From the NCBI GenBank assembly GCA_016931785.1, contig JAFGED010000206.1, positions 1-54,567 of the forward strand: 54,567 bases of DNA, read 5' to 3'. Numbering within the stretch: the stretch's first letter is position 1; the number at the start of each line of letters is the position of its first letter. The notes under the pieces were generated by a model. The model saw nothing but the letters and a program-made list of their open reading frames with translations, was not told the origin of the DNA and did no database searches. The position numbers and the translations under genes are program-made. The stretch is from Anaerolineae bacterium. Its GTDB lineage: Bacteria; Chloroflexota; Anaerolineae; B4-G1. Below, in pieces: positions 2,854 through 42,167 of the stretch.

Positions 2854-5800
2854 GTGTGTGGGAGTGGCTCGATAAGGGGAGATTATTCGTTGGTGCATAG
2901 AGCACGCCGGTGGGTGGCCGTTGGCTTGGTATTGCTGTTTCTGCTGGCCTTTGTGCCGCGGGTCGTGTATCCCGTCTCCCGACCTCTCCAGTGGTACTTT
3001 CGCTCGGCGCAGTTCTTCCAGGCGGTCCTGCGCGGGGACCTGGCAGGCACGCTCTTCTCCGAGCACCCCGGCGTGACGGTGATGTGGCTTTCGGGGGCGG
3101 CACTATGGGGCTGGTACGGCTTGCAATCCCTCTTGGGTCTGAATCCACCTACACCTTTGGAGACGGAGGGCTATGCTTTCTTTGACCGGGTTACGGTAGC
3201 GGTGGTGCCGCTGGCGTTGGTCGTGGCACTGGGTATCGTCTGGGGTTGGTATCTCCTGCGTCGTCTCTTTGGCCAGCGGGTGGCCTGGGTGGCAGCAGTG
3301 TTGTGGGCTGTCGATCCCTTTTACCTGGCCAACTCCAAGGCGCTTCACCTCGATGCCACGCTTTCCACGCTGATGCTGCTTTCTGCCCTGTGGATGCTGA
3401 CCTATCTGCGCGAGCATCGCTGGCGGTATCTGGTCCTATCGGCAACCCTGGGTGGCCTGGCGATCCTGACCAAGATATCGGCTGTTTTCTTGTTTCCCTT
3501 TTGGGGGCTCTGTCTGCTGGTTGATTGGCTCCCGTCTATTCGCGGTTTCCGATCGCTAATCTCGAATCTTGGGCCTTTGATATCGCGTATCCTGCTCTGG
3601 CTTCTCATCGCTGCTGCTGTGTTCTTTGTCCGCTGGCCTGCCCTATGGGTGCAGCCCGCGGCCAGCTTTGATTGGATGATCAACGAAGGGATCCTGCTTC
3701 ACAAGGACGATGTTCGCGATCAGCCGCTGTTCTACCGAGGGACGCTGGGCGTGCAGGACCCCGGCCCCGGGTTTTACCTCGATACGATCCTTTTTCGCAC
3801 GACTTTTCTGACGTTGCCCTTTGTCGTCGTCGGCTTGCTGGCGCTGTGGGGCCGGCAGCGGGAGGAGCGGCTATCGCTGCTGCTGGTCGGTTTTGCCGCG
3901 TTCTTCTTCGTCCAGATGTCGCTGAGCGGTTGGAAGGACGGGCGCTACTTGTTGCCCATTTTCCTCATTTTGGACATTCTGGCCGCTTGCGGCTTGACGT
4001 GGTGGGCGGGCCGCCTGCCGCTCAAGTCCTTGGTGCAGATGGGCGTCGTCGGAGGGCTACTGACAACCCAGGCTATCGTCGTGTTCTTGCATCACCCTTA
4101 CTATGGTACCCACTACAACGTGCTATTGGGCGGCCAGCGTGCCGCGGAGCGGGTTTTTCCCCTGGCCGAGTGGGGGGAGGGATTGGATCTGGCGGGGCGG
4201 TACGTGGATAGCCAACCCGGCGCGGAGGATTTCACGATCGGCACGCAGTTCCTGGCCAACGAAATGCTTGCCCAGCACGTGCGCGCGCCGGTCTATGAGG
4301 TCCGACAGGTAAAAGACGAGGCGGAGTATCTGGTGTTTGGCGTGCAGTACACGACGCGTGGCAGGAACTATGATCGTTGGGGGGAGGAGTGGGAGGAGAC
4401 CTACAGGTTCCGTGAGCCGGAGTTTGTCGCTGCCTTCGATGGCATCCCCTATGCCTGGGTTTACCGACCCGACGCGGCGCCGGTCGTTCCGCGAAAGATG
4501 GATGCCAGTTTAGGGGGGGCGATTCGGCTGGTGGGCTACCGCCTGGCTCAGGATAGTGTGGCTCCTGGCGATAAATTGGTATTGACCCTTTACTGGAGAG
4601 CCGAGGGGCCGGTTGACGAGTATTACAACGTCTTTGTGCATCTACAGGCGGCAGACGGGAGCCTGGTGGCCCAGCAGGACAACGTCCCCGTGCGCGGCTC
4701 TTGGCCTACCAATGAGTGGGAAATGGATGTGCTGATTGAGGATCCATATGAAGTGCAGGTCCCCCTCGATCGAGCTCCCGCTGAATGCGTGTTGAGCGTA
4801 GGGATGTACAAACCGACGACGATGGAGCGGCTGGAGGCCGTCGGCGCCGATGGTGAGCGGCTGCCGGAGGATCGGGTGGTGCTGACCAACGTCTCGGTGC
4901 AGCCGGTGGTGGGCTGGTGGCGGTGGGTGTTTGCGGGGGCGTGGGTGGCGGTTGTTTTTGTCGGAATCGTGTGGCCACTCGTCTTGAAAAACGATCGGCA
5001 TGATGGTACGCGTTGTCAAAAGTTTTTCGGTGAGGAGGGCTTTCTGCAAGGCATTGGAAAGGCGGAAAGAATCTGCCTCGCAGTAATAGTGGTTGGCATC
5101 CTCGTGTATTTGTATTGGTACGGTGCTGTGATCCGCATAAGAGAGGCCAACGTAGACATGACACGCGCCGATCAGAGAGCGTACTTGCTCTACGCCGTAG
5201 AGATGTACAAGGTACTACATGAGGGCAAGGAGTTCCGCTCTCAGGGTGCACAAGGCCCCTTGTATCCAATGCTCCTTTCCCTGGTGTATGATCCAAGCCT
5301 CACCGAGGAAGAGTATTTTGTGCGTGGAAAGTACGTTAGCGCCGGGCTGTCGCTAATCCTATTGGGAGGGTTGTTTTTCATATTCAGGAAACACTTTTCC
5401 TTGCTGCATAGTGCTAATATCGTACTGGCGGAGGCCTTTATGGTGTTCTTGTTCAAGGCGCCATCATTTCACGCTGAGCCTCTGTTCTACTTTTGGGGCT
5501 TTTGTGCGTTTGTGTTACTGTACAGGATGTTGGTCAAACCCTCGTGGAAACTGGGCGTTCTGACCGGATTCGTGATCGGCATAGCGCATTTTACCAAACC
5601 ATCCTTGTTGCCCGCCTTGGGGCTTTTTCTCCTGTTTTCGGTGGCCAAGGCGATCGCGCCGCTTTGCTCCAGATTGGTCAAGCGGTCGTGCATCGCCCTT
5701 GGTCAATTCGATGTGCGGGTATTCTCTTCGCGTTTGGTGAGCATTGTTCTCGTTGCGGTCACTTTTCTGTCTACGGTCTATCCCTACATCAATTCGAACA

Positions 5801-6411
5801 AGAAGGTCTTTGGCAAGTATTTCTATTGTGTCAGTACGACCTTCTACATGTGGTACGACTCGTGGGAAGAGGCGAAACAGGGGACAAAAGCGTATGGAGA
5901 TCGAGAGGGATGGCCGGACATGCCGCCTGAACAGCTCCCCAGCCTCGACAAATACTTGCGAGAGCATACCGTACAGCAGATCGTGAATAGAGTATGGAAT
6001 GGATTTCGGATACTTCATCAAAGCTCCGCGAGTTCGTATGGCTATTACAAGTACGTTTTGATCTACTTGGTGGGTTTCCTCGCTATGGCCATTCTCAATC
6101 GTCGTCATACCCTGGAGATGGCAGCTAAACGCCCTTTCCTCTTGCTGTTTTGCCTCTCTTATTTTGCTGCCTATCTGTTTGCTTATGCCTGGTACACGCC
6201 AATTGCCAGTGGAAACCGGTTCACTTTGGCTTTGTTTCTTCCCTTTATGTTTGCCATCTCCCGTGCCATTTTCGCGCAGCCCACGGTATATCTGCCGGTT
6301 CGCCCTTTTGGCGTTCAGATCAAATTACTGAACGTGCTGAACGCCTTGGTGTTGGCTCTTCTCTTTTTTGACATATACGGTGTATTGACGGAAAAGGTAC
6401 TGACTATGTGA
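2854..6411 (+). CDS. Type-A GT-C-like membrane protein with one C-terminal shared module and TM anchor, fused in frame to a second bare PMT_2/ArnT-like GT-C membrane domain (1185 aa)
   Basis: Continuous ORF. The N-terminus parallels the genes at 6515 and 23721 (VSRPLQWYFRS...FSEHPGVTVMW...DPFYLANSKALHLDA). Shared module at about 4507-4905 (LVGYRL..LTLYWRA..YNVFVHLQ..WPTNEW..). TM VAVVFVGIVWPLVL. From about 5060 a second polytopic domain begins (TRADQRAYLLYAVEMYK, HFTKPSLLPALGLF). The start is uncertain: GTG 2854 is the longest option, and TTG 2890 or GTG 2893 follow AGGGGAG. Confidence 0.8.
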   Translation: MCGSGSIRGDYSLVHRARRWVAVGLVLLFLLAFVPRVVYPVSRPLQWYFRSAQFFQAVLRGDLAGTLFSEHPGVTVMWLSGAALWGWYGLQSLLGLNPPTPLETEGYAFFDRVTVAVVPLALVVALGIVWGWYLLRRLFGQRVAWVAAVLWAVDPFYLANSKALHLDATLSTLMLLSALWMLTYLREHRWRYLVLSATLGGLAILTKISAVFLFPFWGLCLLVDWLPSIRGFRSLISNLGPLISRILLWLLIAAAVFFVRWPALWVQPAASFDWMINEGILLHKDDVRDQPLFYRGTLGVQDPGPGFYLDTILFRTTFLTLPFVVVGLLALWGRQREERLSLLLVGFAAFFFVQMSLSGWKDGRYLLPIFLILDILAACGLTWWAGRLPLKSLVQMGVVGGLLTTQAIVVFLHHPYYGTHYNVLLGGQRAAERVFPLAEWGEGLDLAGRYVDSQPGAEDFTIGTQFLANEMLAQHVRAPVYEVRQVKDEAEYLVFGVQYTTRGRNYDRWGEEWEETYRFREPEFVAAFDGIPYAWVYRPDAAPVVPRKMDASLGGAIRLVGYRLAQDSVAPGDKLVLTLYWRAEGPVDEYYNVFVHLQAADGSLVAQQDNVPVRGSWPTNEWEMDVLIEDPYEVQVPLDRAPAECVLSVGMYKPTTMERLEAVGADGERLPEDRVVLTNVSVQPVVGWWRWVFAGAWVAVVFVGIVWPLVLKNDRHDGTRCQKFFGEEGFLQGIGKAERICLAVIVVGILVYLYWYGAVIRIREANVDMTRADQRAYLLYAVEMYKVLHEGKEFRSQGAQGPLYPMLLSLVYDPSLTEEEYFVRGKYVSAGLSLILLGGLFFIFRKHFSLLHSANIVLAEAFMVFLFKAPSFHAEPLFYFWGFCAFVLLYRMLVKPSWKLGVLTGFVIGIAHFTKPSLLPALGLFLLFSVAKAIAPLCSRLVKRSCIALGQFDVRVFSSRLVSIVLVAVTFLSTVYPYINSNKKVFGKYFYCVSTTFYMWYDSWEEAKQGTKAYGDREGWPDMPPEQLPSLDKYLREHTVQQIVNRVWNGFRILHQSSASSYGYYKYVLIYLVGFLAMAILNRRHTLEMAAKRPFLLLFCLSYFAAYLFAYAWYTPIASGNRFTLALFLPFMFAISRAIFAQPTVYLPVRPFGVQIKLLNVLNALVLALLFFDIYGVLTEKVLTM

Positions 6412-6514
6412 TTGTGTGCGTTGGTCGATTACGTATGTTCTTTGCTAAGGGGCGATTGGGTTTTCCGGGAAATGCGAGCTACTTGTGCGGTCGGCGTTGC
6501 GTGGAGTTCTCTCG

Positions 6515-8683
6515 ATGAAAGGAAGCTATCCGTTGAAACATAACGTTCGTCGTTGGACGTATATTGGTTTAGCGCTGGTGTTCTTGCTAGCTTTTGTGTT
6601 GCGGGCCGTGACGCCTGTTTCGCGCCCGCTACAGTGGTATTACCGTTCTATCGATTTCATCACCGCGATCATGGAGGGCCGCTGGGCCGATACGTTCTTC
6701 AGCGAACACCCTGGGGCTAGTGTGATGTGGATCGTAGGGATCGCGCAGCATCTGGTCTACAATGTGCGTGTGGCATTGGGACAGAATCCCCCGCCGCTGT
6801 TGGATATAGATGGACGGGTGTTCAACACTGAGGTGGCGGTAGGTGTGTGGGCGCTGGCGGCTGTTATTTCGGGCACTATTGCGGCGGCGTGGCATCCTTT
6901 GAGGAGATTATTTGGCAGACGCGTGGCTTGGGCTTCTGTTTTGCTAATGGCGTTGGATCCGTACTACATCGCTAACGGGAAGGTGCTGCATATCGATGCA
7001 TTGCTTTCGGCGCTGATGCTGCTTTCGGCCCTGGCGTGGATGGTCTATGCGAGGGATGAAGATCGGCGATCCTTTATCGTCTCGGTGGTCTGTGGCGGCC
7101 TAGCCGTGTTGACCAAGGCCCCGTCTATTTTCCTGATACCTTTTTGCGCTTTGGCCCTTCTGGTGACGCGGTTTGGTGAAAAGCGGTTCAGCCTGCGCTG
7201 GCTGCTGCGTCGATGGGCGCTGCCATTGTTGGTCTGGCTGTGTATCGTGACCGCGCTTTTTTTCCTGCTGTACCCGGCGGCGTGGGCGATACCCGGTGAG
7301 ACTTTTGGATTTGCGCTGAAGGAGATAACGTGTCATGTGTCGCAGCCGCATACCAATCCGGTGTTTTTTCACGGCACTGCATGGGTTTCCGATCCTGGAC
7401 CATTGTACTATGTTTATACCCTGGCTTTCAAGTCCAGTTGGGTTAGTCTGAGCCTTGCTCTCTTGGGTTTATTGATATTTTGGCGATGGCCGTCGGCGAA
7501 ACGCCGCTCGGCTATTCTTGTGGTTGTGTATGTGATGTGTTTTGCGATACAGATGACGATCGGTGGCAAAAAAGGCCTACGTTATTTGTTGCCCTTATTC
7601 CCGATGTTTGACGTGTTGGCAGGCCTGGGATGGCTGGCGTTCCAAAAGGGAGTTGCTATGCTGGTGCGACGCTCCGTTATCTCTTGGGTGGTCGCTGCCC
7701 TGCCCATCGTCGTGCTGGCGGTAATGGTGTTACCTCTGCATCCATACTACGGTACACACTATAATATCCTTTGGGGAGGGATTAGAGCCGCCACACGCGA
7801 GTTCCCGCTACAAGAACAGGCAGAGGGATACGATTTGGTCGGGGAGTGGCTTGAGGAGCGTGGAGGGAGTCGACTGCGTGTGGTGTCGCAGCAGCCCGAT
7901 ATGCTCATGCAGCACACAGGAGCGCAGATTTTCGAGTACGATGCACCCGAGGCCAACCCTGCTAACCACAGCGTGGATTATTTTGCCTTTGACCGCAATC
8001 ACCTGGTGCGCAACTACCGTGATGATCTTTGGTGTACTACATGGCAGCGCTATCGCAGTCGGGAGCCCGCATTTCAGGTTGATTTCCTGGGAGTTCCTTA
8101 CGTCTGGGTTTACGAGGCTTTGCCTTCTTCTCTGACCATCGATGCGTCTAGTCATCTTTTTGGCGGGTGGCTGGATGATGGCATCGAGTTGATCGGCTAT
8201 GACTGGCAAGATGAGTGGGCCGTGCCGGGGGATTCACTCCCGCTATATCTTTACTGGCACGCCGACCAGTCGCTAGCGACCGACTATACTGTATTCGTGC
8301 ATCTGCATGGGCCTGATGGGGGATTGCTGGCCCAGTGCGATAGTCCGCCTCTAGGAGGTGCACGCCCGACGACGAGCTGGGCTCCCGGCGAAGTGGTCGG
8401 GGACATGTGCGATGTGGTGTTACCGGAAGATGCACCCCTGGGACAGTATCAAGTGTTTGTGGGGATGTATGCCTGGCCCAGTTTGGAGCGTCTGCCAGCC
8501 TTTGCAGCAGATGGCGCGGATTTACCTGATGGCCGGCTGCCATTGTTGACTTTTGAGCTGAGTGACGCGAATACATTGCGTCTGCCCTGGTTATGGATGA
8601 TATTGGCATGGCTGGTGGTACTGGTCGTGTTAGGGGTTGGCGTAATGGGAATTAGGAAGCAGAAGGAAGAGTCTGGGGTCTAG
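6515..8683 (+). CDS. Type-A GT-C-like membrane protein, one shared C-terminal module plus C-terminal TM anchor
   Basis: ORF 6485..8683. ATG 6515 lies 8 nt after GGAG. VSRPLQWYYRS...FSEHPGASVMW...DPYYIANGKVLHIDA. Module LIGYDW..LYLYWHA..DYTVFVHLHGPDGGLLAQCD..RPTTSWAPGEVV..GQYQVFVGMY. Tail TM LAWLVVLVVLGVGV. Confidence 0.85.
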   Translation: MKGSYPLKHNVRRWTYIGLALVFLLAFVLRAVTPVSRPLQWYYRSIDFITAIMEGRWADTFFSEHPGASVMWIVGIAQHLVYNVRVALGQNPPPLLDIDGRVFNTEVAVGVWALAAVISGTIAAAWHPLRRLFGRRVAWASVLLMALDPYYIANGKVLHIDALLSALMLLSALAWMVYARDEDRRSFIVSVVCGGLAVLTKAPSIFLIPFCALALLVTRFGEKRFSLRWLLRRWALPLLVWLCIVTALFFLLYPAAWAIPGETFGFALKEITCHVSQPHTNPVFFHGTAWVSDPGPLYYVYTLAFKSSWVSLSLALLGLLIFWRWPSAKRRSAILVVVYVMCFAIQMTIGGKKGLRYLLPLFPMFDVLAGLGWLAFQKGVAMLVRRSVISWVVAALPIVVLAVMVLPLHPYYGTHYNILWGGIRAATREFPLQEQAEGYDLVGEWLEERGGSRLRVVSQQPDMLMQHTGAQIFEYDAPEANPANHSVDYFAFDRNHLVRNYRDDLWCTTWQRYRSREPAFQVDFLGVPYVWVYEALPSSLTIDASSHLFGGWLDDGIELIGYDWQDEWAVPGDSLPLYLYWHADQSLATDYTVFVHLHGPDGGLLAQCDSPPLGGARPTTSWAPGEVVGDMCDVVLPEDAPLGQYQVFVGMYAWPSLERLPAFAADGADLPDGRLPLLTFELSDANTLRLPWLWMILAWLVVLVVLGVGVMGIRKQKEESGV

Positions 8684-8701
8684 GCCAGATGGCAGGCGAC
8701 G

Positions 8702-11338
8702 TTGGCCGAGGCTTTTCGTGATTGTCTCTCATCTAGTTGGAGATGTGACAGATTGCAAGCGTTTTTTGCGAAGGAGCGGTCGGTTCTTGCTAGAAAAGGT
8801 TTGGCGTTGAGCGTAAGAAGTACCACAGAAACTAGAGCCAGGTGGTTTCGTTGGTTGTGCGTCGGGGTCGCATACTTTGCACTCGCGCTGCTGATGACAT
8901 ACCCCCTGGTCTTGGAATTCAACGATAATTTTGGAGGGTACCATGGCGACATCCTCCCCACTTTGTGGAACCGATGGTGGTTGAGGGAGGCGCTGCAAAA
9001 AGGACTCGACCCGTACTTTACGCCATATCTGTTCTATCCAGGCGGGGCGTATCTGCTCTTTCACAATATGGGCTGGTTCAATATACTTACAGGCCTTGCC
9101 TTGGGGCCGTTCTTTGGGGAAGTCGGTTCGTACAATGCGATCATATTGGCGAATTTCACGCTGTGCGGACTTGGGGCCTATGCGTTGATCAGATACCTTG
9201 GTGAGCGGGAAATCGTCGCTTTTGTTGGAGGCCTGGTATATGCTTTCTTTCCGTATCATATGTCAAACATCTTGACTCAGCCGGAGATTGCCAACGTACA
9301 ATGGGTGCCCCTGTATGTGCTTTATTTGATGGAAGCTACTCGTGGAAAAGGACCCGCAACGGGGCTCCTCGCAGGGCTGTTTCTTGGATTGACCGCGCTT
9401 GCTCACGTGCACTTGCTGACGATGGTGGGGATGCTTACCGCTTTGTGGCTTGCCTATAGCTTGGCGTGCGAACGCGCTGTGTGGAGTTGGCGTTCTATTC
9501 GGAATCTCGCAATCATCGGGCTTGTTCTTTTGGCGTTGGCGGGGCCGTTTTTCTTTCCAATGGCTGCGTACTTTGTGAAGGGTGGAGAGCTTGCAGACAC
9601 GTTGACCGAACAGGATGATTACAGGCAAACGGATGTGCTGGCTTACTTGGTGCCTTCTCGCTATCATCCACTATTGGGGCTACCCTACTTGTTTTATGGG
9701 AAGCATTTCTACTATAACCGGAACTGGCAGCCGACCCCGGGATACGTTGTCCTGTTTCTGTTAGGATATGCATTTGTCCGGCGCTCTCGGCGCAGGGCTT
9801 TTTGGGCATTTCTCGCCTTGGTGCTGTGTGTCCTGGCTCTCGGGCCATATCTGCGCGTAGCAGGGCGCATATTTTGGGAAATTCCCCTGCCTTATCATTT
9901 GGTATCAGGTTTACCTGTCATCCGCGCGTTGCGGGCCTCGGATAGATTCAATGGCATGCTGGCGCTTCCCGTGTCGGTCCTAGCAGCGTTCTCGCTTTCT
10001 GATCTGTTGGCCAAGGTGCAGAGGCGGCTGAACGTGCTCTTTGCACGTGGAGCGGCTGTCTTGTTTGGCTGTTTGATTCTGTTCGAGTACCTCGTCGTAC
10101 CGTTCCCTACGATGCGCCCCCAGATCTCGTCGTTCTATGAAGCGCTACGCTCGGAAGACGGGCAATTTGCTGTTGTAGACGTACCTACAGGATGGGCAGT
10201 GTCTCGATACTATTTGTACTATCAAATGGAGCACGGTCATCCTATTGTGGAAGGGCACATCTCGCGCCCAATTGGTGGGACATATCGTTTCATCGGTCAG
10301 GTGCCGCTGCTTACCCGCGTCGATGAATATCAAAGTGAGTGGAAACTCGACTTCCGGGATGTTTCCCGCCAACTGAGCCCTCTGGCTGATGCAGATGTGC
10401 GGTATTTGATCGTTCACAAAGACTTTGTCAAAGAGGAAGGTCATCTACCAGCCTGGCTTGACTGGATCACGCTGCAGCCACGGTACGAGGACGAGCAGAT
10501 CATCGTGTACTCAACTCGACCGGAATATGGGCGTGACTTTGAGTGGGAAAGAGATCTGGGAGCTGAAGTTGGCATCATTCGGGCAAAGTTGCCGATGGCG
10601 GGAGAGTTTTCGCAGGGAAGCGTTTTTGAGGCAGAGATCCGCTGGGGGAGCCGAGGGGCGCCGGCTCAGAATTTGGCTGTGGAGGTCGCGCTGGTTTCGG
10701 AGGAAAATGGGCAAATAGTGCAGCGGACGCATCGGCCTATTTTGGAAGAGTGGCCGACTGGCCAATGGCCGGCTGGTACGGTGGTTATTGATCGATATAG
10801 ATTTCAGATCGATCCCATGCTGCCTGGCGGAGTCTATTCTGTGCGCGTATCATTGCTGGATGCCGAGACCCTGGCACCTGTTGGTGAGCAGGCCGATCTG
10901 GGCTCTATCGTTATCCACGAGTTGCCGCGCAGCTTTGATCCTCCAACACCGGCGGTCGTTTTGGATGTGTCTTTCGGTGAGGATTTACGCTTGGTAGGCT
11001 ATGACCTAGAGCTGGATGCTGAGGAGCTAACATTGGTGTTACATTGGCAGGCATTGCGCCGCATGGATGACACGTGGAAATTCTTTGTACACGTCTTCGA
11101 TCCAGACACCGGCGCGGTGGTAGCGCAAGCCGACGTTATGCCGCGCAATTGGGCTTATCCGACCAACTGGTGGGCAGAGGGGGAGTACGTCGGCGATCCT
11201 ATCAGCGTCTCGATGGAGGGTGTCCCATCTGGCACCTTTGGGATAGCGGTGGGCGTGTACCATCCAGATTCGGGAGAGCGGCTTGTGACATCCTTGGGCG
11301 AGGATCGACTCGTTTTGCCACAGGAGGTTTCCCGATGA
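8702..11338 (+). CDS. Type-B polytopic membrane protein (GT-C-like, family not assigned) with two shared C-terminal modules
   Basis: N-terminal motif LLMTYPL...WNRWW...YFTPYLFYPGG..LLFHN is shared with the genes at 11335, 15984 and 21239. A degenerate module 1 is followed by module 2 (LVGYDLEL..LVLHWQALRRMD..FFVHVFDPDTGAVVAQADVMP..YPTNWWAEGE). The start is uncertain: TTG 8702 is the longest option, and in-frame TTG 8801 or 8807 are possible. Confidence 0.8.
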   Translation: MAEAFRDCLSSSWRCDRLQAFFAKERSVLARKGLALSVRSTTETRARWFRWLCVGVAYFALALLMTYPLVLEFNDNFGGYHGDILPTLWNRWWLREALQKGLDPYFTPYLFYPGGAYLLFHNMGWFNILTGLALGPFFGEVGSYNAIILANFTLCGLGAYALIRYLGEREIVAFVGGLVYAFFPYHMSNILTQPEIANVQWVPLYVLYLMEATRGKGPATGLLAGLFLGLTALAHVHLLTMVGMLTALWLAYSLACERAVWSWRSIRNLAIIGLVLLALAGPFFFPMAAYFVKGGELADTLTEQDDYRQTDVLAYLVPSRYHPLLGLPYLFYGKHFYYNRNWQPTPGYVVLFLLGYAFVRRSRRRAFWAFLALVLCVLALGPYLRVAGRIFWEIPLPYHLVSGLPVIRALRASDRFNGMLALPVSVLAAFSLSDLLAKVQRRLNVLFARGAAVLFGCLILFEYLVVPFPTMRPQISSFYEALRSEDGQFAVVDVPTGWAVSRYYLYYQMEHGHPIVEGHISRPIGGTYRFIGQVPLLTRVDEYQSEWKLDFRDVSRQLSPLADADVRYLIVHKDFVKEEGHLPAWLDWITLQPRYEDEQIIVYSTRPEYGRDFEWERDLGAEVGIIRAKLPMAGEFSQGSVFEAEIRWGSRGAPAQNLAVEVALVSEENGQIVQRTHRPILEEWPTGQWPAGTVVIDRYRFQIDPMLPGGVYSVRVSLLDAETLAPVGEQADLGSIVIHELPRSFDPPTPAVVLDVSFGEDLRLVGYDLELDAEELTLVLHWQALRRMDDTWKFFVHVFDPDTGAVVAQADVMPRNWAYPTNWWAEGEYVGDPISVSMEGVPSGTFGIAVGVYHPDSGERLVTSLGEDRLVLPQEVSR

Positions 11339-13875
11339 ATCACAAGAGATTCTCAAACCGCTTGTGCAGATTTTCTAGTCGCTTGCAGAGGTCGGATGGT
11401 TTCGTCCTTTTCGGTTATGTGCTGCTGACCTTCGTCATGACGTACCCGTTGGGTTTTCATCTTGGGACGCATGCTGTGGGTGATCGGAACGACATGTGGG
11501 TCTCTCATTGGAACAACTGGTGGGGCCGGGAAACACTTCTCGATGGAGGCAATCCTTATCGAACCTCTTACATGTTTCACCCGCAGGGAGTCAGTTTAGT
11601 ATGGCATAGTTTCAGTTGGCTGAATATGGCCCTGTGGCTAGTATTGAGCCCCTTTACCGGCTCCCTGGCAGCTCATGGGATAACCGTTTTGCTGACTTAC
11701 ATATTGGGTGGGTACACCACTTACTTGTTGGCGCGCGAGGTGACTGGATCGAGAAAAGCGGCTTTCCTGGCCGGGTTGATCTTTGCCTTCTTTCCTTATC
11801 GATACGCGGACCGCAATCACATCAAGTTTTTGACCGCTCAATGGATACCTCTTTCTATTCTTTATTTGATGCGCGTAACACGACGTGGGCATCTGGTCGA
11901 TGGACTCAAGGCTGGCCTGGCTATGGCCTTGTGTGGTCTGTCTAGCGTCCAGTTGATGATCATGAGTGGGATCTGGACCGGTGCGTGGTTACTTTTCAGC
12001 CTGCTTGCCGAGCGCCAGACCTGGTCGCGTCGCACTGCTCTGGCGCTTTTAGTGGCTGGGTTTGTATGTGGGGTGACCGTGGCTCCCTTTTTCGTACCAC
12101 TGGTGGCAGCTTGGTGGGACCCCAATCTGTCGCAGGACCTGACCGCAAGCGATACGGGAGGGGCGGGCGTCAATCTCTTGAATTTCTTTTCCATCAGCGA
12201 AGGCCATTCTTTGGTCCGAGAGGGTGGTGTCCTCGAACAGTGGATACATAGCGAGGTGGCCATCGGCTATCTGGTTCTGGCGCTGGTGGTATGGGCTGCT
12301 ACAAGACGCTGGGCCAAAGCGCGTTTCTGGGTTATTTCGGCGCTGTTATTCGGTGCGCTATCCCTTGGTTCAGAGTTACATGTTGGCGGATTAGGGTTTC
12401 CCGCCGTGCCAACTCCCTATCGGTTGCTAGAACCGACGGCTATTGGCGAGTCTATACGCAAACCTGAACGATTCTGTGTGCTTCTAGGGATATCCGTCGC
12501 AGTTGCTGCAGCCGTGGGTTTTGCCGCGTTACTGGATAGGGTATCCAGTCGTAGGTGGAGGAACTTGGCGTCCGCTTTAATCGGGGGTTTCATCTTGTTT
12601 GAGTACTGGATGGTGCCATTTCCTATGACTGAGCCCATTCAGTCCCCCTTTTACGCTCAACTGAGACAGGAACCGGGGCAGTTTGCCTTGGCCGATTTCC
12701 CCATCGGTTTTCACGCTCACGACAAGTGGTATATGTACGCTCAAACGTTGCACGGCAGGTCGATGGTGGGGGGACATGTCTCGCGTGTGCCAGCCCACGC
12801 TCACGATTTTATGGACGGTGTGCCGCTTTTGACGGCAGCCCGGCAGGGAGTGCCAGAGCGAGGGGCGCTGGACGACATATCGAGACAATTGAAACCTCTT
12901 TCGGAAAGCGGGGTGCGATACATTCTTATTCACAAGTATCGCTTGAGCTCGGAGGCGGCGAGTGGCTGGCGAGCTTGGTTTGCGACTAAGCCCTATTATG
13001 AAGATGCATATTTGACCGTTTTCAACACGGCTCCCCATTATGGGCGAGATTTTGAATTCAAGCAGAGAGTGGAAGATGGAATAGGCTTGATTGAAGCCTC
13101 ACTTTCTGCCGAAAAAATTTCGCAGGGTGGAATGCTGGAGGCAGAAATCGTCTGGGGCTCGGACCAGGCCCCAGGGAAAGCGTGGATGGCCTATCTGGCG
13201 TTGATAGGACCGGCGGGGCAGGAGGAGGAGCAGCAGCGAGTCGTCTTTGAGCCTTGTGCGGGCTGGTCGACGGCGAAATGGGGCCAGGATGCAATCGCGC
13301 GCGCGCGGGTTGAGTCGAGGATCGACCCGTTCTTGGAGGGCGGTACATACACGGTGGTTGTGGGGCTATTTGACGCCGAGACAGGAAAAGCAGCCGGAGC
13401 CGTGTACAAAGTAGGGCTCGTAGAGGTTCAGACTATTCCCCGTGTATTTACTTCTCCCGATGTCGAGGTTGAGTACGAGGCGACGTTTGGCACCGAGTTG
13501 CGGCTTCTGGGGTACGGGCTGCGCCGGCCAGATGAACAGCTCGATGTGGTGCTTCACTGGCAGGCGTTGCGCCGTATGGATACCGCGTACAAGTTCTTTA
13601 TCCATCTGGTGAATGTGGATACAGGAGAGCTCACAACCCAAGCTGATGTGATGCCCTATGGATGGACGTATCCGACCTTCTGGTGGGAGGCCGGAGAGTT
13701 TATCAGTGATCCTATCAGTCTCTCACTGGCCGACGTGCCGGCAGGGACATACCGCTTGGAAGTCGGCGTCTACGACCCCGACACGGGTGTCCGCCTGCCG
13801 GTCAATGCAGCTCCGGAGCCGCTACTGCTGGCAGAGGATCGCCTGGTTCTGCCGGAAGTCGTAGAAAACCGATAG
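11335..13875 (+). CDS. Type-B polytopic membrane protein with two shared C-terminal modules
   Basis: ORF 11074..13875 trimmed to ATG 11335 (MNHKRF). AGGAGG at 11322-11327. ATGA overlap with the upstream stop (11336-11338). FVMTYPL..WNNWW..MFHPQG. Module 2 LLGYGL..VVLHWQALRRMD..FFIHLVNVDTGELTTQADVMP..YPTFWWEAGE. Confidence 0.9.
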   Translation: MNHKRFSNRLCRFSSRLQRSDGFVLFGYVLLTFVMTYPLGFHLGTHAVGDRNDMWVSHWNNWWGRETLLDGGNPYRTSYMFHPQGVSLVWHSFSWLNMALWLVLSPFTGSLAAHGITVLLTYILGGYTTYLLAREVTGSRKAAFLAGLIFAFFPYRYADRNHIKFLTAQWIPLSILYLMRVTRRGHLVDGLKAGLAMALCGLSSVQLMIMSGIWTGAWLLFSLLAERQTWSRRTALALLVAGFVCGVTVAPFFVPLVAAWWDPNLSQDLTASDTGGAGVNLLNFFSISEGHSLVREGGVLEQWIHSEVAIGYLVLALVVWAATRRWAKARFWVISALLFGALSLGSELHVGGLGFPAVPTPYRLLEPTAIGESIRKPERFCVLLGISVAVAAAVGFAALLDRVSSRRWRNLASALIGGFILFEYWMVPFPMTEPIQSPFYAQLRQEPGQFALADFPIGFHAHDKWYMYAQTLHGRSMVGGHVSRVPAHAHDFMDGVPLLTAARQGVPERGALDDISRQLKPLSESGVRYILIHKYRLSSEAASGWRAWFATKPYYEDAYLTVFNTAPHYGRDFEFKQRVEDGIGLIEASLSAEKISQGGMLEAEIVWGSDQAPGKAWMAYLALIGPAGQEEEQQRVVFEPCAGWSTAKWGQDAIARARVESRIDPFLEGGTYTVVVGLFDAETGKAAGAVYKVGLVEVQTIPRVFTSPDVEVEYEATFGTELRLLGYGLRRPDEQLDVVLHWQALRRMDTAYKFFIHLVNVDTGELTTQADVMPYGWTYPTFWWEAGEFISDPISLSLADVPAGTYRLEVGVYDPDTGVRLPVNAAPEPLLLAEDRLVLPEVVENR

Positions 13876-13986: not shown

Positions 13987-15870
13987 ATGATGAACTGGCG
14001 TGCATCCTTTTTTGGAAAACTTGGCGTTCTCTCTCTCATATGTGCTGCTAGTCTCTCCTGGACAGTCGCTGGCTTGGCTGCCCCTCCCAAGCAGGACTTG
14101 GCTCCGGCTGGGACGGATATCTTGGGTAACATCACGACCTCCACAACGTGGGGATTAGCTGGAAGTCCTTACTATATCAAGGCACAAGAAATAAGGGTCA
14201 CTTCTGGCGCCACGCTTACAATTGAGCCAGGTGTGAAGGTCTACATTTGGCCCGATGGTAGGATCCACGTCGACAGTGGCTCGGCTATCATTGCCAAGGG
14301 CACTCCCAGCCAGAACATCGTTTTCGATCGTGTGTCGCCGACGTATACTTGGAAAAACATTCGCCACTATGCCGGATCGACTTCTTACTACCGCTACGTT
14401 CAATTTCTCTGGGGCGGTAACACAGAAGGCTCGCTCTACTATGAAGGCGGCACCCATGTACTCAACAACTGCCAGGTCAAGAACAACAAGCGTCAGGGGA
14501 TTGTAGCCAACGGTCCTGTTAACTTGCGGATCGCCGGTACGCTATTTGAGGGTAACAAGCTCAAAACGATATGGGTCGCCAGCGGCGCCAATCTGACCAT
14601 CACTGGCAGTACGTTTAGTGACCCTGATGGCGATTGGTCGATTTACGTGAGTAACTATGCCCCTCCGCCTACCATCTCGGTAAGCGACTCTAATTTTCTA
14701 CGCAATCTGGGCGTTTATAACGAGCAATATGCTGTTTCTACGGTTGACGCCGAAAATAACTACTGGGGACCGAATCATCCAAGCACGAAAGTGGGTCCTG
14801 GGGTTGATTATTCTCCTTGGCTTAGCACCGGCCCAGTGGATCGCGTCGGCATCACCACGCCTCCCACTGTCACCTTCACCGTCGCGCCCGATCCCAGCGT
14901 CGCGCGTCCTGTGGGTACGGAGTACACGTTCGACGCTTCGGACACCACCGACGTCGAGGATTATTTATCCTCCCTTGATGTGTGCTGGGATTGGGAGGAC
15001 GACGGAGGCGGTTGTGACTCGACGGCGATCTCTCCCACCCATAGCTATGCTAGCGGCGGCTGGCACACGGCGCGTTTGACGGTCACGGATACCGATGGTC
15101 TGACCGGCACGTTGACGCAGCAGATACTATCCGGCTGGGTGCCTACGGCGACCTTGAACTTTACCCAGACGACCTGGGCGCAGATCGAGGTCGATGCCGA
15201 TGGCAGTGATGACGTCGAGGATGATCCAGAGGATCTGAAGGCCTACTGGGACTGGGATGGCGATGGCGTGTGGGACACCGGCGCGTACAGCATCACCACC
15301 GTCGTAACCCATACCTACAGTCACATCGGGCGTTACTGGCTCACGCTGGGCGTGGAGGATACAGAGGGCGTAGTGGGCACGCAGACCAGGGTGGTGGATA
15401 TCATCCCACCTGCAGCGTCGGCATCTGTCGACGGCAGTGGCGGCGCGTTGGTCTCGACGGATGGGACCGTGACCGTTACCTTGGGGGCCGGCGCTGTTAG
15501 TGGTGACGCGGTCATCACGCACACGCCCTGGATAACGGTGCCGATGGGATACGGCGAGCTGCCGGGCGATTTCACCTACCAGGGGTTCGGCCTGACCGCC
15601 CAATCACTTGGCGGACAGCCCATCAGTGGCGTCACCGGCACCTACACAATCTCGGTCGAATATGACCTCGATTACTACGGCGACGTGCTTGGACTTTGGA
15701 GCGATACAAGCATGCTCAAGTTGTATCGTTGGTCGGGTTCGAAATGGGTTCTGGTGCCCTCTACGATCGATTCTGGTCAACTGATCGCGACCACGGACAG
15801 CTTTGGCGACTTTGCCTTGGTTCTCGAGGCGAAGAAAGTCTACTTGCCGCTTGTGCTCGAGTCCTACTAG
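13987..15870 (+). CDS. Secreted right-handed beta-helix (CASH/NosD-like) protein with two PKD domains
   Basis: Signal peptide MMNWRASFFGKLGVLSLICAASLSWTVAGLAAP. Beta-helix-type repeats (VTSGATLTIEPGVKV, NLRIAGTLFEGN, ANLTITGSTFSD). Two PKD-like units (YTFDASDTTD..WDWEDDG..HSYASGGWHTARLTVTDTDG and WDWDGDGVWD..HTYSHIGRYWLTLGVEDTEG). It has its own promoter and terminator. Confidence 0.8.
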   Translation: MMNWRASFFGKLGVLSLICAASLSWTVAGLAAPPKQDLAPAGTDILGNITTSTTWGLAGSPYYIKAQEIRVTSGATLTIEPGVKVYIWPDGRIHVDSGSAIIAKGTPSQNIVFDRVSPTYTWKNIRHYAGSTSYYRYVQFLWGGNTEGSLYYEGGTHVLNNCQVKNNKRQGIVANGPVNLRIAGTLFEGNKLKTIWVASGANLTITGSTFSDPDGDWSIYVSNYAPPPTISVSDSNFLRNLGVYNEQYAVSTVDAENNYWGPNHPSTKVGPGVDYSPWLSTGPVDRVGITTPPTVTFTVAPDPSVARPVGTEYTFDASDTTDVEDYLSSLDVCWDWEDDGGGCDSTAISPTHSYASGGWHTARLTVTDTDGLTGTLTQQILSGWVPTATLNFTQTTWAQIEVDADGSDDVEDDPEDLKAYWDWDGDGVWDTGAYSITTVVTHTYSHIGRYWLTLGVEDTEGVVGTQTRVVDIIPPAASASVDGSGGALVSTDGTVTVTLGAGAVSGDAVITHTPWITVPMGYGELPGDFTYQGFGLTAQSLGGQPISGVTGTYTISVEYDLDYYGDVLGLWSDTSMLKLYRWSGSKWVLVPSTIDSGQLIATTDSFGDFALVLEAKKVYLPLVLESY

Positions 15871-15891
15871 CAACTTGGGTCTCACTCTCTC

Positions 15892-15930
15892 GGCGCCAGG
15901 TGCTCTATCTAGGGTGCCTGGCGCCTTTTT
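15892..15930 (+). terminator. Rho-independent terminator after the beta-helix/PKD gene
   Basis: GGCGCCAGG (15892-15900) pairs with CCTGGCGCC (15917-15925), extendable by wobble pairs, and is followed by TTTTT (15926-15930). Confidence 0.75.
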
Positions 15931-15946
15931 CCCTCGCAAGGCCTCC

Positions 15947-15975
15947 TTGCCCTAAACGCTCTCTTGCGCTACAAT
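15947..15975 (+). promoter_or_regulatory. Sigma70-like promoter, cassette P1 copy 1 (-35 TTGCCC, 17 nt, -10 TACAAT), ATG 8 nt after the -10: probable leaderless mRNA
   Basis: The 45-nt block 15945..15989 differs at only 3 positions from 23682..23726. There is no purine-rich SD between TACAAT and ATG 15984. Confidence 0.65.
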
Positions 15976-15983
15976 CCCTGCCG

Positions 15984-18530: not shown

Positions 18531-18636
18531 GCGTTGGCAAATGGCCTGGCGTTTGTCGCCGGGAGATGGCTGCATAATTGCCGCGTTCTGCTGCTTGGCG
18601 TATACCCGTCAGCAGAGGAGGAGGAAGTTACTTCAC

Positions 18637-21186: not shown

Positions 21187-21238
21187 GCGGCGTTGGGGAT
21201 GAGGGGCCTTGAGCCTTGATGCTGTAAGGAGCTATCGA

Positions 21239-23712: not shown

Positions 23713-23720
23713 CCTTGCCG

Positions 23721-25859
23721 ATGAGATGGATCGAGTCGCTCGCTCAACGCCCCTGGGTGCGCCGCGCTTTCCCTGCGGCGCTTTTCGTCATAGCTTTTCT
23801 CCCTCGCGCCCTTCAGCCGGTCTCCCGCCCCCTGGTTTGGTATCTGCGCTCTGCGCACTTCATCGACGCGGTGCTGGCGGGTGACTGGGGCAACACCGTC
23901 TACTCGGAGCATCCAGGCGTGACGCTGATGTGGCCGGTGGCGATTGGCCTGAAGCTCTATTGGGCGCTCTCCGGCGTCACGCCGGCGGCGGAGAGCCTGT
24001 CGCCCGATTTCGAACCGATCCACTTTTTCGGCCCGGTGCCTGTGACAGAGATCGCCGCTGCGCTGCTGCCGTTGGCGCTGCTGATCTCGCTCTCCATCGT
24101 GGTGGCCTACTTTCTGCTGCGCCGCCTCTTTGGCGGGACGATCGCCGCTGTCGCCGGGCTGCTCCTGGCCACCAGCCCCTACTACCTGGCCCAGTCCAAG
24201 ATCCTCCACCTGGATGCGTGGATGGCGACGTTGATGTTGCTCTCGGCGCTGGCGCTGCTCTTGTATTGCCGCGAGCACCGCATGCGTTGGCTGATCCTCT
24301 CCGCCGTGCTGGGCGGGCTGGCGCTACTGGTAAAACCTACTGCTCTCTTCCTCGTGCCTTTTAGCGGTCTCGTTTTGCTCGTTCAGGCAATCCGCGACCG
24401 GCAGCCCGTTTTACGTTTTACGCTTTACGTTTCACGTTCTCTCTTCGCTTGGCTCCTCCTCGCCGCCCTCGTCTACTTTGCCCTCTGGCCCGCGATGTGG
24501 GTGGACCCCGTGCGGGCGCTGAAGGCGGTCGAATCCGGGTTGGCCCATCACGCCAGCACCGCTCACGATACGCCGACCTTTTACCTGGGGCAGGTCACGT
24601 ATGATGATCCGGGGCCGGGTTTCTATCTCGTGGCGATGCTCTTTCGCACCGGCGAGATCGAGCTGCTGTTTGCGGGTGTCGCGGCGGTTGCGGGGGGCAT
24701 CTACCTGCTTCGCCACAGGCGACTATCGCAGGCCGGGGTAGACTATCTGCTTCTCCTGGCCTTTGTCGTCTTTTTCCTGGCCCAGATGAGCCTGGGGGCC
24801 AAAAAGATGCCGCGCTATGTCCTTCCGGCTATCCTGGCGCTGGACGTGCTGGCGGCGGCGGGCATCGTCGCCTGGGCGCGCGCGCTGGCAGGCCGCGGGC
24901 TCCGACTGGCGTCGGCTTTGATGTCGCTCCCTCTGCTGGTTCAAGCGGTGCTTGTCCTGCCGCTTCACCCCTACTACGGCACAGCCGCCAACTGGCTGGC
25001 CGGCGGCCCACAGGCTGCCGCTCGCGCCATCCTCACCGGTGAGGAAGGGGAAGGGCTGGCGGAACTGGCTGCGACGCTCAACGCTCGCCCCGAGGCCGAG
25101 AGCACGACCGTCGCCGCGCAGCTCAAGCACGTGTTCAACCAATATTTCCGTGGCGCCACGCTGGATATTTACGAGCGGCCCGCCGACTATTTCGTCTTTC
25201 ATCGCAACTATACCGGGCGCGATTACAAGGTCGAGCAGTGGGGCGAGCTGTGGGAGCGATACGCCGCCCGCACGCCGGAGCGGGAGGTCGTCTTTGGCGG
25301 CGCGCCCTACGCCTGGCTCTATCCAGAGCTTTCTCCCGGCGCGTCGCCCGAGCACGCGCTGGAGGTTCGCCTGGGCGATCAGCGCCGCTTTCTGGGGTAC
25401 GACCTGCGCTCGACAGAGGTCGCTCCTGGGGATCGCGTGCCCGTCGTCCTCTATTGGCAGTCGACGGAGCTGGTCGCCGACGACTTGAGCGTTTTCCTCC
25501 ATCTCCTGAATGGCAGCGGCGAGTTGGTCTGGCAGGACGATGGGGCCGCCGCCCACGGCGCGCGGCCTACCTGGGGCTGGGAGGCCGGCGAGGTGATCGT
25601 CGATCCCCATACGCTGCCGCTGCCGCGGGACTTGCCTGAGGGAAATTACCTACTCGTGGTGGGCCTCTACGATTGGCAGAACGGGGAGCGGTTGCCTGCC
25701 TTTACACCGGCGGGCGAGCGGTTGGCCTACGACCAGGTCGCGGTAGCGACTTTTGCCGTGCGGCGGCCTGGCACCCACCCGATGGCTTGGGTCGCGCGGG
25801 TGGTGGGGGGATTGGTGTTACTTTCTTCATTGATGACGATCAGGAGGCGCGATGAGTGA
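23721..25859 (+). CDS. Type-A GT-C-like membrane protein, one shared module plus C-terminal TM anchor
   Basis: ORF 23715..25859 (TTG). ATG 23721 (MRWIESL) is preferred. VSRPLVWYLRS..YSEHPGVTLMW..SPYYLAQSKILHLDA. Module FLGYDLRS..VVLYWQS..LSVFLHLLNGSGELVWQDD..RPTWGWEAGEVI..GNYLLVVGLYDWQNGERL. Tail TM VVGGLVLLSSLMTI. Confidence 0.88.
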   Translation: MRWIESLAQRPWVRRAFPAALFVIAFLPRALQPVSRPLVWYLRSAHFIDAVLAGDWGNTVYSEHPGVTLMWPVAIGLKLYWALSGVTPAAESLSPDFEPIHFFGPVPVTEIAAALLPLALLISLSIVVAYFLLRRLFGGTIAAVAGLLLATSPYYLAQSKILHLDAWMATLMLLSALALLLYCREHRMRWLILSAVLGGLALLVKPTALFLVPFSGLVLLVQAIRDRQPVLRFTLYVSRSLFAWLLLAALVYFALWPAMWVDPVRALKAVESGLAHHASTAHDTPTFYLGQVTYDDPGPGFYLVAMLFRTGEIELLFAGVAAVAGGIYLLRHRRLSQAGVDYLLLLAFVVFFLAQMSLGAKKMPRYVLPAILALDVLAAAGIVAWARALAGRGLRLASALMSLPLLVQAVLVLPLHPYYGTAANWLAGGPQAAARAILTGEEGEGLAELAATLNARPEAESTTVAAQLKHVFNQYFRGATLDIYERPADYFVFHRNYTGRDYKVEQWGELWERYAARTPEREVVFGGAPYAWLYPELSPGASPEHALEVRLGDQRRFLGYDLRSTEVAPGDRVPVVLYWQSTELVADDLSVFLHLLNGSGELVWQDDGAAAHGARPTWGWEAGEVIVDPHTLPLPRDLPEGNYLLVVGLYDWQNGERLPAFTPAGERLAYDQVAVATFAVRRPGTHPMAWVARVVGGLVLLSSLMTIRRRDE

Positions 25860-30455: not shown

Positions 30456-30528
30456 AGGCGTTTTTCAGTTTTTGGGCAAGAGTGACGCTGTAACGGCCAA
30501 CGCGAATGCAGAGCCCCGATTGCTTCAG

Positions 30529-30717
30529 AATTGAAATGGGTGTGTTTCATTTCAGTTGGGCCGCTCGTTGCCCGGCGATCAATCGCCGGGCTAGCGAAGC
30601 CGCGCCCCGTTTACGGGGCTGAAAAAGCCGGGTTGACCCGGCTTTGCCCCTTAGCCCGGATGTTTACGTCCGGGCGACGCCGGAATTCAACTCATTTGAA
30701 ACACACCCAATTGAAAT
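30529..30717. mobile_element. MITE-like element A: 171-bp body (30538..30708) with perfect 12-bp terminal inverted repeats, four internal GC hairpins and a 9-bp target-site duplication
   Basis: TIRs GGGTGTGTTTCA (30538-30549) and TGAAACACACCC (30697-30708). Direct repeats AATTGAAAT at 30529-30537 and 30709-30717. Internal palindromes CCCGGCGAT/ATCGCCGGG (30571-30590), GCCCCG/CGGGGC (30604-30619), AGCCGGG/CCCGGCT (30626-30643) and GCCCGGA/TCCGGGC (30654-30675). Confidence 0.65.
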
Positions 30718-30730
30718 ACGCCCGCGTGCC

Positions 30731-30758
30731 TTGAATTTACCGCGTAATAGGGTAGAAT
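30731..30758 (+). promoter_or_regulatory. Sigma70-like promoter of the ZIP transporter gene (-35 TTGAAT, 16 nt, -10 TAGAAT)
   Basis: TTGAAT at 30731-30736 and TAGAAT at 30753-30758, then AAGGAG (30778-30783) and ATG 30790. Confidence 0.6.
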
Positions 30759-30789
30759 TCGGGTCCAAACCGTCGGGAAGGAGATCGAG

Positions 30790-31605
30790 ATGGTCGAATG
30801 GTTTCAGGGATTGAGTCCCATTGTGCAGGCCCTGGTAGGCACCTGTTTTACCTGGTTTGTGACCGCACTGGGAGCGGGCTTGGTTTTTTTCTTCAAGAGC
30901 ATTAATCGCAAGGTCCTGGATGGCATGCTGGGCTTTGCCGCCGGCGTCATGATCGCCGCGAGTTATTGGTCGCTGCTGGCCCCGGCCATCGAGATGGCCG
31001 AGGAATCAGGTGGATTGCCTGCCTGGCTCCCGGCCGCCGGTGGGTTTCTGCTAGGCGGTGCGTTTCTCTGGCTTATAGATAAGCTGCTGCCTCACCTGCA
31101 CCTTGGGCTTCCCATCGAGGAGGCGGAGGGCATCAAGACGAGTTGGCAGCGCAGCATCTTGCTGGTGTTGGCGATCACGCTGCACAATATCCCGGAGGGG
31201 CTGGCCGTGGGCGTGGCCTTTGGCGCTGTGGCGGCCAATCTGCCGGCGGCGACGCTGGCTGGCGCGGGCGCTCTGGCGCTGGGCATCGGTATCCAGAACT
31301 TTCCCGAGGGAGCTGCCGTCTCCGTGCCCCTGCGCAGGGAGAATATCTCCCGTCTCAAGAGCTTTTGGTATGGTCAGGTGTCCGGGATGGTTGAGCCTGT
31401 CGCAGGTCTGCTCGGCGCGGCGGCGGTCCTGTTGATGCGGCCCATCCTGCCCTACGCGCTGGCCTTTGCCGCCGGAGCGATGATCTATGTGGTCGTCGAG
31501 GAACTCATCCCCGAATCGCAGTTGGAGACGAGTACCGACGTCGCCACCATCGGCGCGATGCTGGGCTTTGCGGTGATGATGACGCTGGACGTGGCGTTGG
31601 GTTAG
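30790..31605 (+). CDS. ZIP family divalent metal transporter (ZupT/GufA-like)
   Basis: 271 aa, polytopic. ZIP signature [18 protein letters not shown] and [17 protein letters not shown]. Confidence 0.85.
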
Positions 31606-31702
31606 GCTATACTCTGACCATTCCCGCTCACCGGTGGATGATCTTGCCGGTGGCGGGGATGTGTGTTTATGGGGCCTTGAGTTTCCCACCAGATGGGGTA
31701 AA

Positions 31703-39053: not shown

Positions 39054-39088
39054 CCAGCCCGTAACTTGCAACCTGCAACTCGAAGCTT

Positions 39089-40549: not shown

Positions 40550-40565
40550 AAGGGGAGGTGTAGAG

Positions 40566-42086: not shown

Positions 42087-42116
42087 GACGAACGAGGTCG
42101 TGCAAGTGGTACGAGG

Positions 42117-42151: not shown

Positions 42152-42167
42152 CTGAACGGCAGGCGGC

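Follow-up and report, generated by a model that had tools for sequence, protein, structure and literature searches.

The gene at positions 2854..6411 of a 54,567-nucleotide (nt) stretch of DNA from an Anaerolineae bacterium (Chloroflexota; GenBank assembly GCA_016931785.1, contig JAFGED010000206.1, positions 1 to 54,567, here called the window) in all likelihood joins, in a genuine fusion maintained by evolution, two genes for glycosyltransferases of the GT-C type that were once separate neighbours coupled in translation, and the fusion suggests that the two enzymes work as a pair. The N-terminal and C-terminal enzymes are referred to below as module A and module B. The gene lies on the forward strand and runs for 1185 codons from a GTG at 2854 to a stop at 6409-6411, and a check of open reading frames (ORFs) found the frame uninterrupted and free of stops over its whole length. 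The public gene call, P0266, begins at TTG 2890 and gives a product of 1173 residues that is 100% identical to that of the window.

Module A closes with a C-terminal transmembrane (TM) helix at 4915..4986 (residues 688-711), recognised both from hydropathy and as a helix in the AlphaFold2 (AF2) model; the helix sequence VFAGAWVAVVFVGIVWPLV occupies nt 4927-4983, and the helix would bring the chain back to the cytoplasmic side. Unfused A-type proteins and the paralogues in the window terminate between a few and about 11 residues past the equivalent helix. Thus, the paralogue at 6485..8683 ends in WLWMILAWLVVLVVLGVGVMGIRKQKEESGV and that at 23715..25859 in VVGGLVLLSSLMTIRRRDE, each followed directly by the stop, with tails of 11 and 7 residues after the final TM helix. 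An earlier reading of this DNA from its letters alone (the sequence-only reading) had described these ends, and had estimated that the frame of the gene at 2854 runs on for about 470 codons; the count is 475, with no stop among them. The segment joining the two modules is a linker of 27 codons (4987..5067, KNDRHDGTRCQKFFGEEGFLQGIGKAE), made up of the former intergenic spacer together with the N-terminus of B and predicted to be disordered and cytoplasmic, its predicted local distance difference test (pLDDT) values being below 50 in both AF2 models (module B and full length).

The membrane domain of module A (2911..4089) is of the PMT_2/PMT (GT39-like) type according to Pfam: within residues 1-711, PMT_2 scores 48.2 bits (cut-off 26.1) over residues 114-224 and PMT 23.3 bits (cut-off 22.7) over residues 41-258, with no Pfam match to a MIR domain in the module. 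NCBI labels homologues at 73% identity "glycosyltransferase family 39 protein", and in Foldseek comparisons module A of the full-length AF2 model matches STT3, ArnT (TMt 0.5), AftA, ALG9, and Emb. The first extracytoplasmic loop carries an S-E-H-P-G motif (3058..3072, residues 69-73) that is invariant in 21/21 A-type sequences of the alignment used here (A5), and from what is generally known of GT-C enzymes we take E70 in this motif to be a candidate catalytic acid. AF2 secondary structure places an extracytoplasmic soluble domain at 4132..4899 (residues ~427-682), the end of which is a carbohydrate-binding-like beta-sandwich (4486-4899, residues ~545-682). This sandwich resembles the carbohydrate-binding domain of Wzt (Foldseek: 6o14, E 2.5e-4, TMt 0.49-0.54; also 2r5o), a subunit of the O-antigen ATP-binding cassette transporter. 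Some B-family proteins (P0182, P0191, and P0203) end in a homologous sandwich, that of P0182 sharing 33% identity with the sandwich of module A (E 4e-10).

Module B (5068..6408, residues 739-1185) is a compact, polytopic, all-helical membrane domain without an extracytoplasmic domain. Its AF2 model, built on an 87-sequence alignment, reaches a pLDDT of 93.2 and a predicted template modelling score (pTM) of 0.92, and its top ~36 Foldseek matches in the PDB are all GT-C enzymes, including Pmt1/2, Pmt4, AglB, STT3, AftA, ArnT, PglB, ALG9/12, AftB, DPY19, and Emb; probabilities are 0.8-1.0 in the first 34, with modest E-values (4.6e-4 to 0.4) and TMq of 0.3-0.48. The earlier proposal that the second half is a GT-C membrane domain is thus borne out by fold comparison. 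Profile methods see much less of this: the window copy has no NCBIfam match and none in Pfam even at E<=10, save a spurious one to DUF4029, and a profile search of module B against PDB chain sequences returned chance matches only. PMT_2 is, nonetheless, reached by 24 of the 87 B-family members (best 1.2e-8). Directly after TM1 of module B, in extracytoplasmic loop 1, stands a D-Q motif (5170..5175, residues 773-774), in which D773 is at least 90% conserved and Q774 invariant across the 87 sequences; both are present in 14/14 B sequences of A5, and D773 would be the candidate catalytic aspartate. Judged by its modelled fold and by this loop-1 acidic motif, module B belongs to a divergent and uncurated GT-C family, which is widespread, with hundreds of homologues and no Pfam or NCBIfam model of its own.

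Relatives in which the two halves are still separate genes, which the sequence-only reading had advised looking for, do exist. At loci L001-L004 (JGI contigs), an A gene for 691 residues and a B gene for 462 residues overlap by 4 nt in the sequence ATGA (72% A and 65% B identity to the window for L001), and at L006/L007, an A gene for 710 residues and a B gene for 454 residues are separated by a 67-nt spacer. Across these unfused relatives, identity to the window is 68-72% for A and 65-67% for B, and the flanks are syntenic with those of the window, with a PKD protein and further large membrane proteins downstream. Beyond these loci, a scan of genome contigs, which included no close relative of the window organism among the GTDB representatives, found B homologues at 32 loci at no more than 45% identity, and at none of the 32 did an A-like sequence lie upstream of the B homologue.

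Fused orthologues were recovered with an A-half protein query from three different JGI metagenomes: P0267 (locus L042; 1178 residues, 88% identity), P0268 (L043; 1173 residues, 87%), and P0314 (L044; 1097 residues as called, 70%). The earlier idea that the fusion is unique to the window was dropped once this query had yielded them. The linkers of L042 and L043 are that of the window with few substitutions and no insertions or deletions; the linker of L044 is different and 13 residues shorter. Other searches must be read with their reach in mind. A C-half query of a 5.8-billion-protein collection returned standalone proteins of ~450 residues only, and a full-length query of 1.84 billion representatives returned nothing spanning both halves, results that reflect limits of clustering and indexing rather than absence: C-terminal and middle queries missed even the window's own product, which the N-terminal query retrieved along with the three fused orthologues. 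A junction-spanning protein query was similarly uninformative, giving two short fragments only and again missing the window's own protein, and a metagenome contig collection scanned with the junction peptide and a degenerate junction DNA pattern gave no match, the relevant samples evidently being absent from it. For alignment, the 32 rows of A5 were used, of which only 4 pair both halves; two larger alignments (A4 and A6), with many A-only and B-only sequences, were rejected because MAFFT placed B-only rows on the A half, A and B both being GT-C proteins with a common LTK motif.

Comparison of fused and unfused loci allows the junction to be followed codon by codon. The A genes of L001 and L006 both stop at the eighth codon counted from a conserved Pro-Leu (CCx CTC); the corresponding eighth codon in the window, 4996..4998, is CGG, aligns with TGA in both unfused loci, and is also CGG in the fused L042 and L043. 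The L006 spacer exceeds that of the window by 28 nt. Within the window spacer, GAGGAGG at 5032..5038 reads as a remnant of the Shine-Dalgarno (SD) sequence of the B gene, its counterparts upstream of the B starts being AGGAGG in L001 and GGTGGGAG in L006; in L042 and L043, the remnant has become GAGGAAGG, a change that is synonymous in the fused frame. The ancestral B start would be the CTG (Leu) codon at 5044..5046, since it aligns with an internal ATG (codon 6 of the called B gene) in L001, with an internal GTG (codon 3) in L006, and with residue 1, the called start, of the more distant B homologues P0006, P0008, and P0010. The same codon is CTA, which is non-initiating, in L042 and L043 and GTG in L044. 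As the sequence-only reading had stated, the window holds no in-frame ATG or GTG between the helix and the second domain: none occurs across 4987-5088, and the nearest canonical in-frame starts are TTG 4984, the final residue of the helix, and GTG 5089, which lies within the next helix. An alternative layout, in which ATGATG at 5000-5005, with TGA at 5001-5003, would be a relic of an ATGA overlap, was rejected: it requires two separate 1-nt deletions, and the codon-for-codon match of the relatives' stop to CGG 4996-4998 is simpler.

Selection was estimated by the Nei-Gojobori method, comparing the window with L042 and L043, for which synonymous divergence (dS) of the long regions is 0.28-0.40. 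Within module A, the ratio of non-synonymous to synonymous divergence (dN/dS) comes to 0.12-0.14 in the membrane domain and 0.19-0.28 in the soluble domain; for B it is 0.17-0.21. Both halves are thus under purifying selection, their overall dN/dS of 0.12-0.28 holding across a dS of about 0.3-0.47. The 27-codon linker gives 0.10-0.13, from 6 synonymous and 3-4 non-synonymous changes (0.10-0.38 is its overall range, with very few changes behind it), and so points in the same direction while resting on few changes. The B halves of the four fused genes, moreover, form a clade, being 71-87% identical to one another and 65-67% identical to unfused B.

Three changes, whatever their order, would have produced the present gene: a sense codon took the place of the A stop (TGA to CGG at 4996-4998), the intergenic spacer came to a length that holds B in frame, and the start codon of B gave way to Leu codons (ATG/GTG to CTG, and CTA in relatives). 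Both the C-terminus of A and the N-terminus of B would lie in the cytoplasm, so that a short cytoplasmic linker could join them without any change of topology; this placement follows from the positive-inside rule, because unfused A proteins end in a TM helix plus a few charged residues and a short basic stretch precedes TM1 in B proteins. The product would be a single polypeptide of ~130 kDa, and translation as one chain is favoured because the linker is conserved, the B start has become CTA in relatives, the SD sequence has decayed, and dN/dS is low. With both loop-1 motifs invariant, an enzyme with two catalytic domains is plausible. The modules may then act as a covalently tethered heterodimer with a fixed 1:1 ratio, comparable to Pmt1-Pmt2 or EmbA-EmbB, and would carry out linked extracytoplasmic transfers from polyprenyl-phosphate sugars to build a cell-envelope glycopolymer. 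The polymer would be specified by the surrounding GT-C-rich cluster of ~38 kb (2854-41453), with which Wzy_C-like and LytR-CpsA-Psr (LCP) genes are associated. Having no extracytoplasmic domain, B probably relies on the carbohydrate-binding domain of A; a need of B for such a sandwich, whether in cis or from a partner, fits the P0182-type B proteins that possess a copy of their own.

A number of observations weigh against a maintained, single-chain enzyme of this kind or against a simple history for it. The full-length AF2 model reaches a pLDDT of 72.7 and a pTM of 0.59, with no confident A-B interface and module B poorly resolved, so that the tethered heterodimer gains no structural support from this modelling, though nothing in the model speaks against it either. 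Three metatranscriptome runs from the study that supplied sediment run X1 (described below) yielded nothing from the fused gene. The linker dN/dS is based on just 9-10 substitutions. The A and B trees are incongruent: the A-type gene closest to the window clade, that of locus L045 (80-82%), has no B gene downstream, and L044, whose B half is the closest outgroup, reaches only 68% identity in its A half. The history may have been a single fusion with a linker that was remodelled later, two separate fusions, or an exchange between paralogues by recombination. Lastly, CTG 5044 follows GAGGAGG by 5 nt, and TTG 4984 is also in frame, so a weak internal start may persist.

From this last point comes the reading that fares best among the alternatives, albeit an unlikely one: that two proteins are made, B arising mainly from a non-canonical internal start (CTG 5044 or TTG 4984) or the linker being cleaved after translation. 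The SD-like element stands at its 5-nt distance upstream of a codon that aligns with related B starts, the aligned codon in L044 is GTG, and the linker, disordered by prediction, might be open to proteases. Yet in L042 and L043 the CTA codon is no initiation codon and the SD sequence is weakened, both changes being silent in the fused frame, and no ATG or GTG is available in frame before TM1. Initiation at ATG 5158, which the sequence-only reading had suggested as an internal start, is improbable: this codon is located downstream of the first TM helix of B, and at its position L042 has an Arg codon. Linker length and frame have also been kept across a dS of ~0.4, whereas in unfused relatives the two genes may overlap by 4 nt or stand 67 nt apart. 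Translation as one polypeptide thus remains the favoured account.

Considerably less probable is capture of foreign DNA. The sequence-only reading had proposed that a compositionally foreign, laterally acquired GT-C gene downstream of A was taken in by loss of the stop codon. Stop loss itself is upheld by the comparison of TGA with CGG; the foreign origin of the captured gene is not, B having already been the neighbour of A. The change in guanine-plus-cytosine (G+C) content that inspired the proposal is genuine. Its spot counts for three 60-nt lines (29/60, 30/60, and 43/60) were reproduced exactly, and a block profile confirmed an abrupt change, the step at 4983/4984 between adjacent 1.4-kb blocks being 0.119, the largest in the window, with 0.3% of positions showing one as large. 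The window's A and B halves have a G+C of 0.609 and 0.495, and a G+C at third codon positions (GC3) of 0.735 vs 0.607. The largest step of the window therefore falls exactly at the junction, and synonymous G+C is lower from 4984 onwards, as foreign capture would have it. However, A and B are adjacent, with syntenic flanks, in unfused relatives, and a step from higher A to lower B occurs in every relative, fused and unfused alike: G+C is 0.601 (A) and 0.521 (B) in L001, 0.590 and 0.520 in L006, 0.582 and 0.478 in L042, 0.589 and 0.471 in L043, and 0.605 and 0.505 in L044. Most of the difference, furthermore, lies in the proteins. Amino-acid composition combined with window-wide codon usage predicts a G+C of 0.612 for A and 0.543 for B, which explains 0.069 of the 0.114 drop (~60%), and the deficit of -0.048 that remains in B is common to the next four genes (6485-13875), at -0.051 to -0.060. 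Because the step is common to unfused relatives and neighbouring genes and is largely driven by amino acids, it is a long-standing feature of the B family and of this stretch of the cluster, and it predates the fusion.

The lowered synonymous G+C extends over a block at 4984-13875, and more weakly to 23692, in which observed minus expected values are -0.05 to -0.06; GC3 is 0.58-0.61 in this block vs 0.79-0.85 in the genes at 23715-41453. The block starts exactly at the A-B junction, within the fused gene. An old lateral origin of the cluster core and a different regime of expression or selection are both possibilities here; if the entire low-GC3 block did once arrive by lateral transfer, which is conceivable, that would have been long before the fusion.

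More doubtful still is the notion of a neutral read-through on its way to decay, in which chance loss of the stop would have left module B (or A) without function. Fusions that arise by a single stop-codon change can indeed be neutral or transient, but four lineages retain both halves intact, at dN/dS of 0.12-0.28, and neither the SEHPG motif of A nor any residue that is invariant in the B family has been lost.

The fused DNA is real and is not an error of assembly or sequencing. The Logan assembly of run X1, a sediment metagenome with a word depth of 246, reproduces 4500-5600 with 0 differences, and run X2, a hot-spring metagenome from another study (2017), gives 8 short contigs without any difference from the window; a 151-nt contig among them covers the junction at 4939-5089. 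The weakest alternative, a missed stop or a frameshift merging two separate genes on paper only—the trivial explanation allowed for by the sequence-only reading, and one encouraged by the metagenomic source and by the predominance of standalone proteins among homologues of either half—is refuted because an independent assembler at that depth agrees fully, an unrelated sample carries the identical junction, and fused orthologues with 13-30% amino-acid divergence stand in three other, independently assembled metagenomes.

Across all domains of life, glycoproteins and the glycans of the cell envelope are made by GT-C enzymes, and several of these work as dimers, among them Pmt1-Pmt2, the Pmt4 homodimers, and EmbA-EmbB. 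Mycobacterial EmbA-EmbB is a GT-C heterodimer (PDB 7BVC/7BVF) whose genes, embA and embB, are adjacent, as the A and B genes are. Heterodimeric, too, is yeast Pmt1-Pmt2 (PDB 6P25), the dimerisation of which is discussed in PMC12331936 and PMC7759382. The likeness to these two systems is that both modules have the GT-C fold, with those structures among the fold matches, and that two GT-C enzymes would act side by side on lipid-phosphate sugar donors; the differences are the predicted single polypeptide with its ~27-residue cytoplasmic linker and the lack of an extracytoplasmic domain in B. Taken by itself, module A passes the Pfam thresholds for PMT_2 and PMT, as in PMT_2/GT39/GT83 enzymes, and ArnT (5F15/5EZM) is among its closest structural matches (TMt 0.5, 17-18% identity). 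Unlike ArnT or the bacterial protein O-mannosyltransferases, however, it has an extracytoplasmic domain of ~255 residues with a sandwich like the carbohydrate-binding domain of Wzt, an extra TM helix, and a loop-1 motif of SEHPG rather than the DE/DxD type. As in Rosetta-stone fusions, the parts are adjacent and coupled (ATGA) in some genomes and fused through stop and start loss in others; unlike the general case, both partners are large polytopic membrane proteins, and the fusion works only because the extra TM helix of A suits the N-in topology of B.

Architectures similar to that of the fused gene are found elsewhere. Among metagenomic proteins, P0378 (1252 residues) holds two separate PMT_2 stretches in a single chain, and P0125 and P0158 combine an A-type GT-C enzyme and its C-terminal TM helix with a different second membrane module, P0125 (1502 residues) running on into a different membrane domain and a soluble domain. 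From these sequences, the single-chain arrangement of A plus a second module recurs in metagenomes, which suggests that the extra C-terminal TM helix of the A type predisposes the family to such fusions. A broader proposal, offered tentatively and held to be possible rather than likely as a whole, is that the gene encodes a natural single-chain GT-C heterodimer in which four elements come together: the compact B-family enzymes would be obligate partners of the large A-type enzymes in Anaerolineae-type Chloroflexota; B would borrow the carbohydrate-binding domain of its partner so that both act on one growing glycan; there would have been more than one fusion event, as the two linker types and the other fusions of A to a second module would indicate; and the extra C-terminal TM helix of the A type would make such fusions topologically possible.

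The surroundings of the gene are themselves rich in large membrane proteins. The array at 2854-41453 (~38 kb) contains at least 16 co-directional large membrane-protein genes, at least 10 of them with a Pfam PMT_2 match. Genes for a PKD/beta-helix protein (13987-15870) and a ZIP transporter (30790-31605) also belong to it, as does a Wzy_C-like gene (39089-40549). Large ORFs of the array with no Pfam match lie at 8702-11338, 11074-13875, 15696-18530, and 21209-23692. The longest-ORF coordinates overlap by 50-265 nt at 8702-11338/11074-13875, at 13987-15870/15696-18530, and with 18481-21186, and the true starts of the overlapping genes are probably downstream of the listed TTG or GTG codons. On the reverse strand lie two adjacent LCP genes and a gene for a NAGPA-like phosphodiester glycosidase (43087-45545 and 47736-48608), which are candidate enzymes of glycopolymer attachment or trimming; one LCP gene has an N-terminal zf-HC2 anti-sigma-like motif. 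The reverse-strand ORF 41986-42786 (266 residues, no Pfam match) has G+C values of 0.79, 0.61, and 0.45 at first, second, and third codon positions, the reverse of all other genes, and is probably not a real gene in that frame or strand. In a relative, TniB-like AAA and Mu-transposase-C genes follow the B gene cluster (L008, 10768-12163; L009, 6764-8159), which indicates a transposon beside the glycosyltransferase array there, and a HicA toxin gene stands directly upstream of the A-type gene of L045.

A limited literature search found neither a single-chain double GT-C enzyme nor a description of these Chloroflexota clusters, and, to our knowledge, the envelope glycopolymers of Chloroflexota are poorly known. 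As a selected natural fusion, the gene offers genetic evidence for the cooperation of two specific GT-C families, and it assigns a likely role to the uncurated but widespread family of module B. It also documents stepwise how an operon junction becomes a linker, through change of the stop to a sense codon, decay of the SD sequence, and change of the start to Leu. Sequential glycosylation outside the cytoplasm could be studied, structurally and biochemically, on the single chain; were the broader proposal to hold, no covalent double-GT-C glycosyltransferase would have been documented before it, and structural work on GT-C cooperation would have a construct to hand. For the organism, the 38-kb GT-C-rich cluster is a candidate locus for a Chloroflexota envelope glycopolymer.

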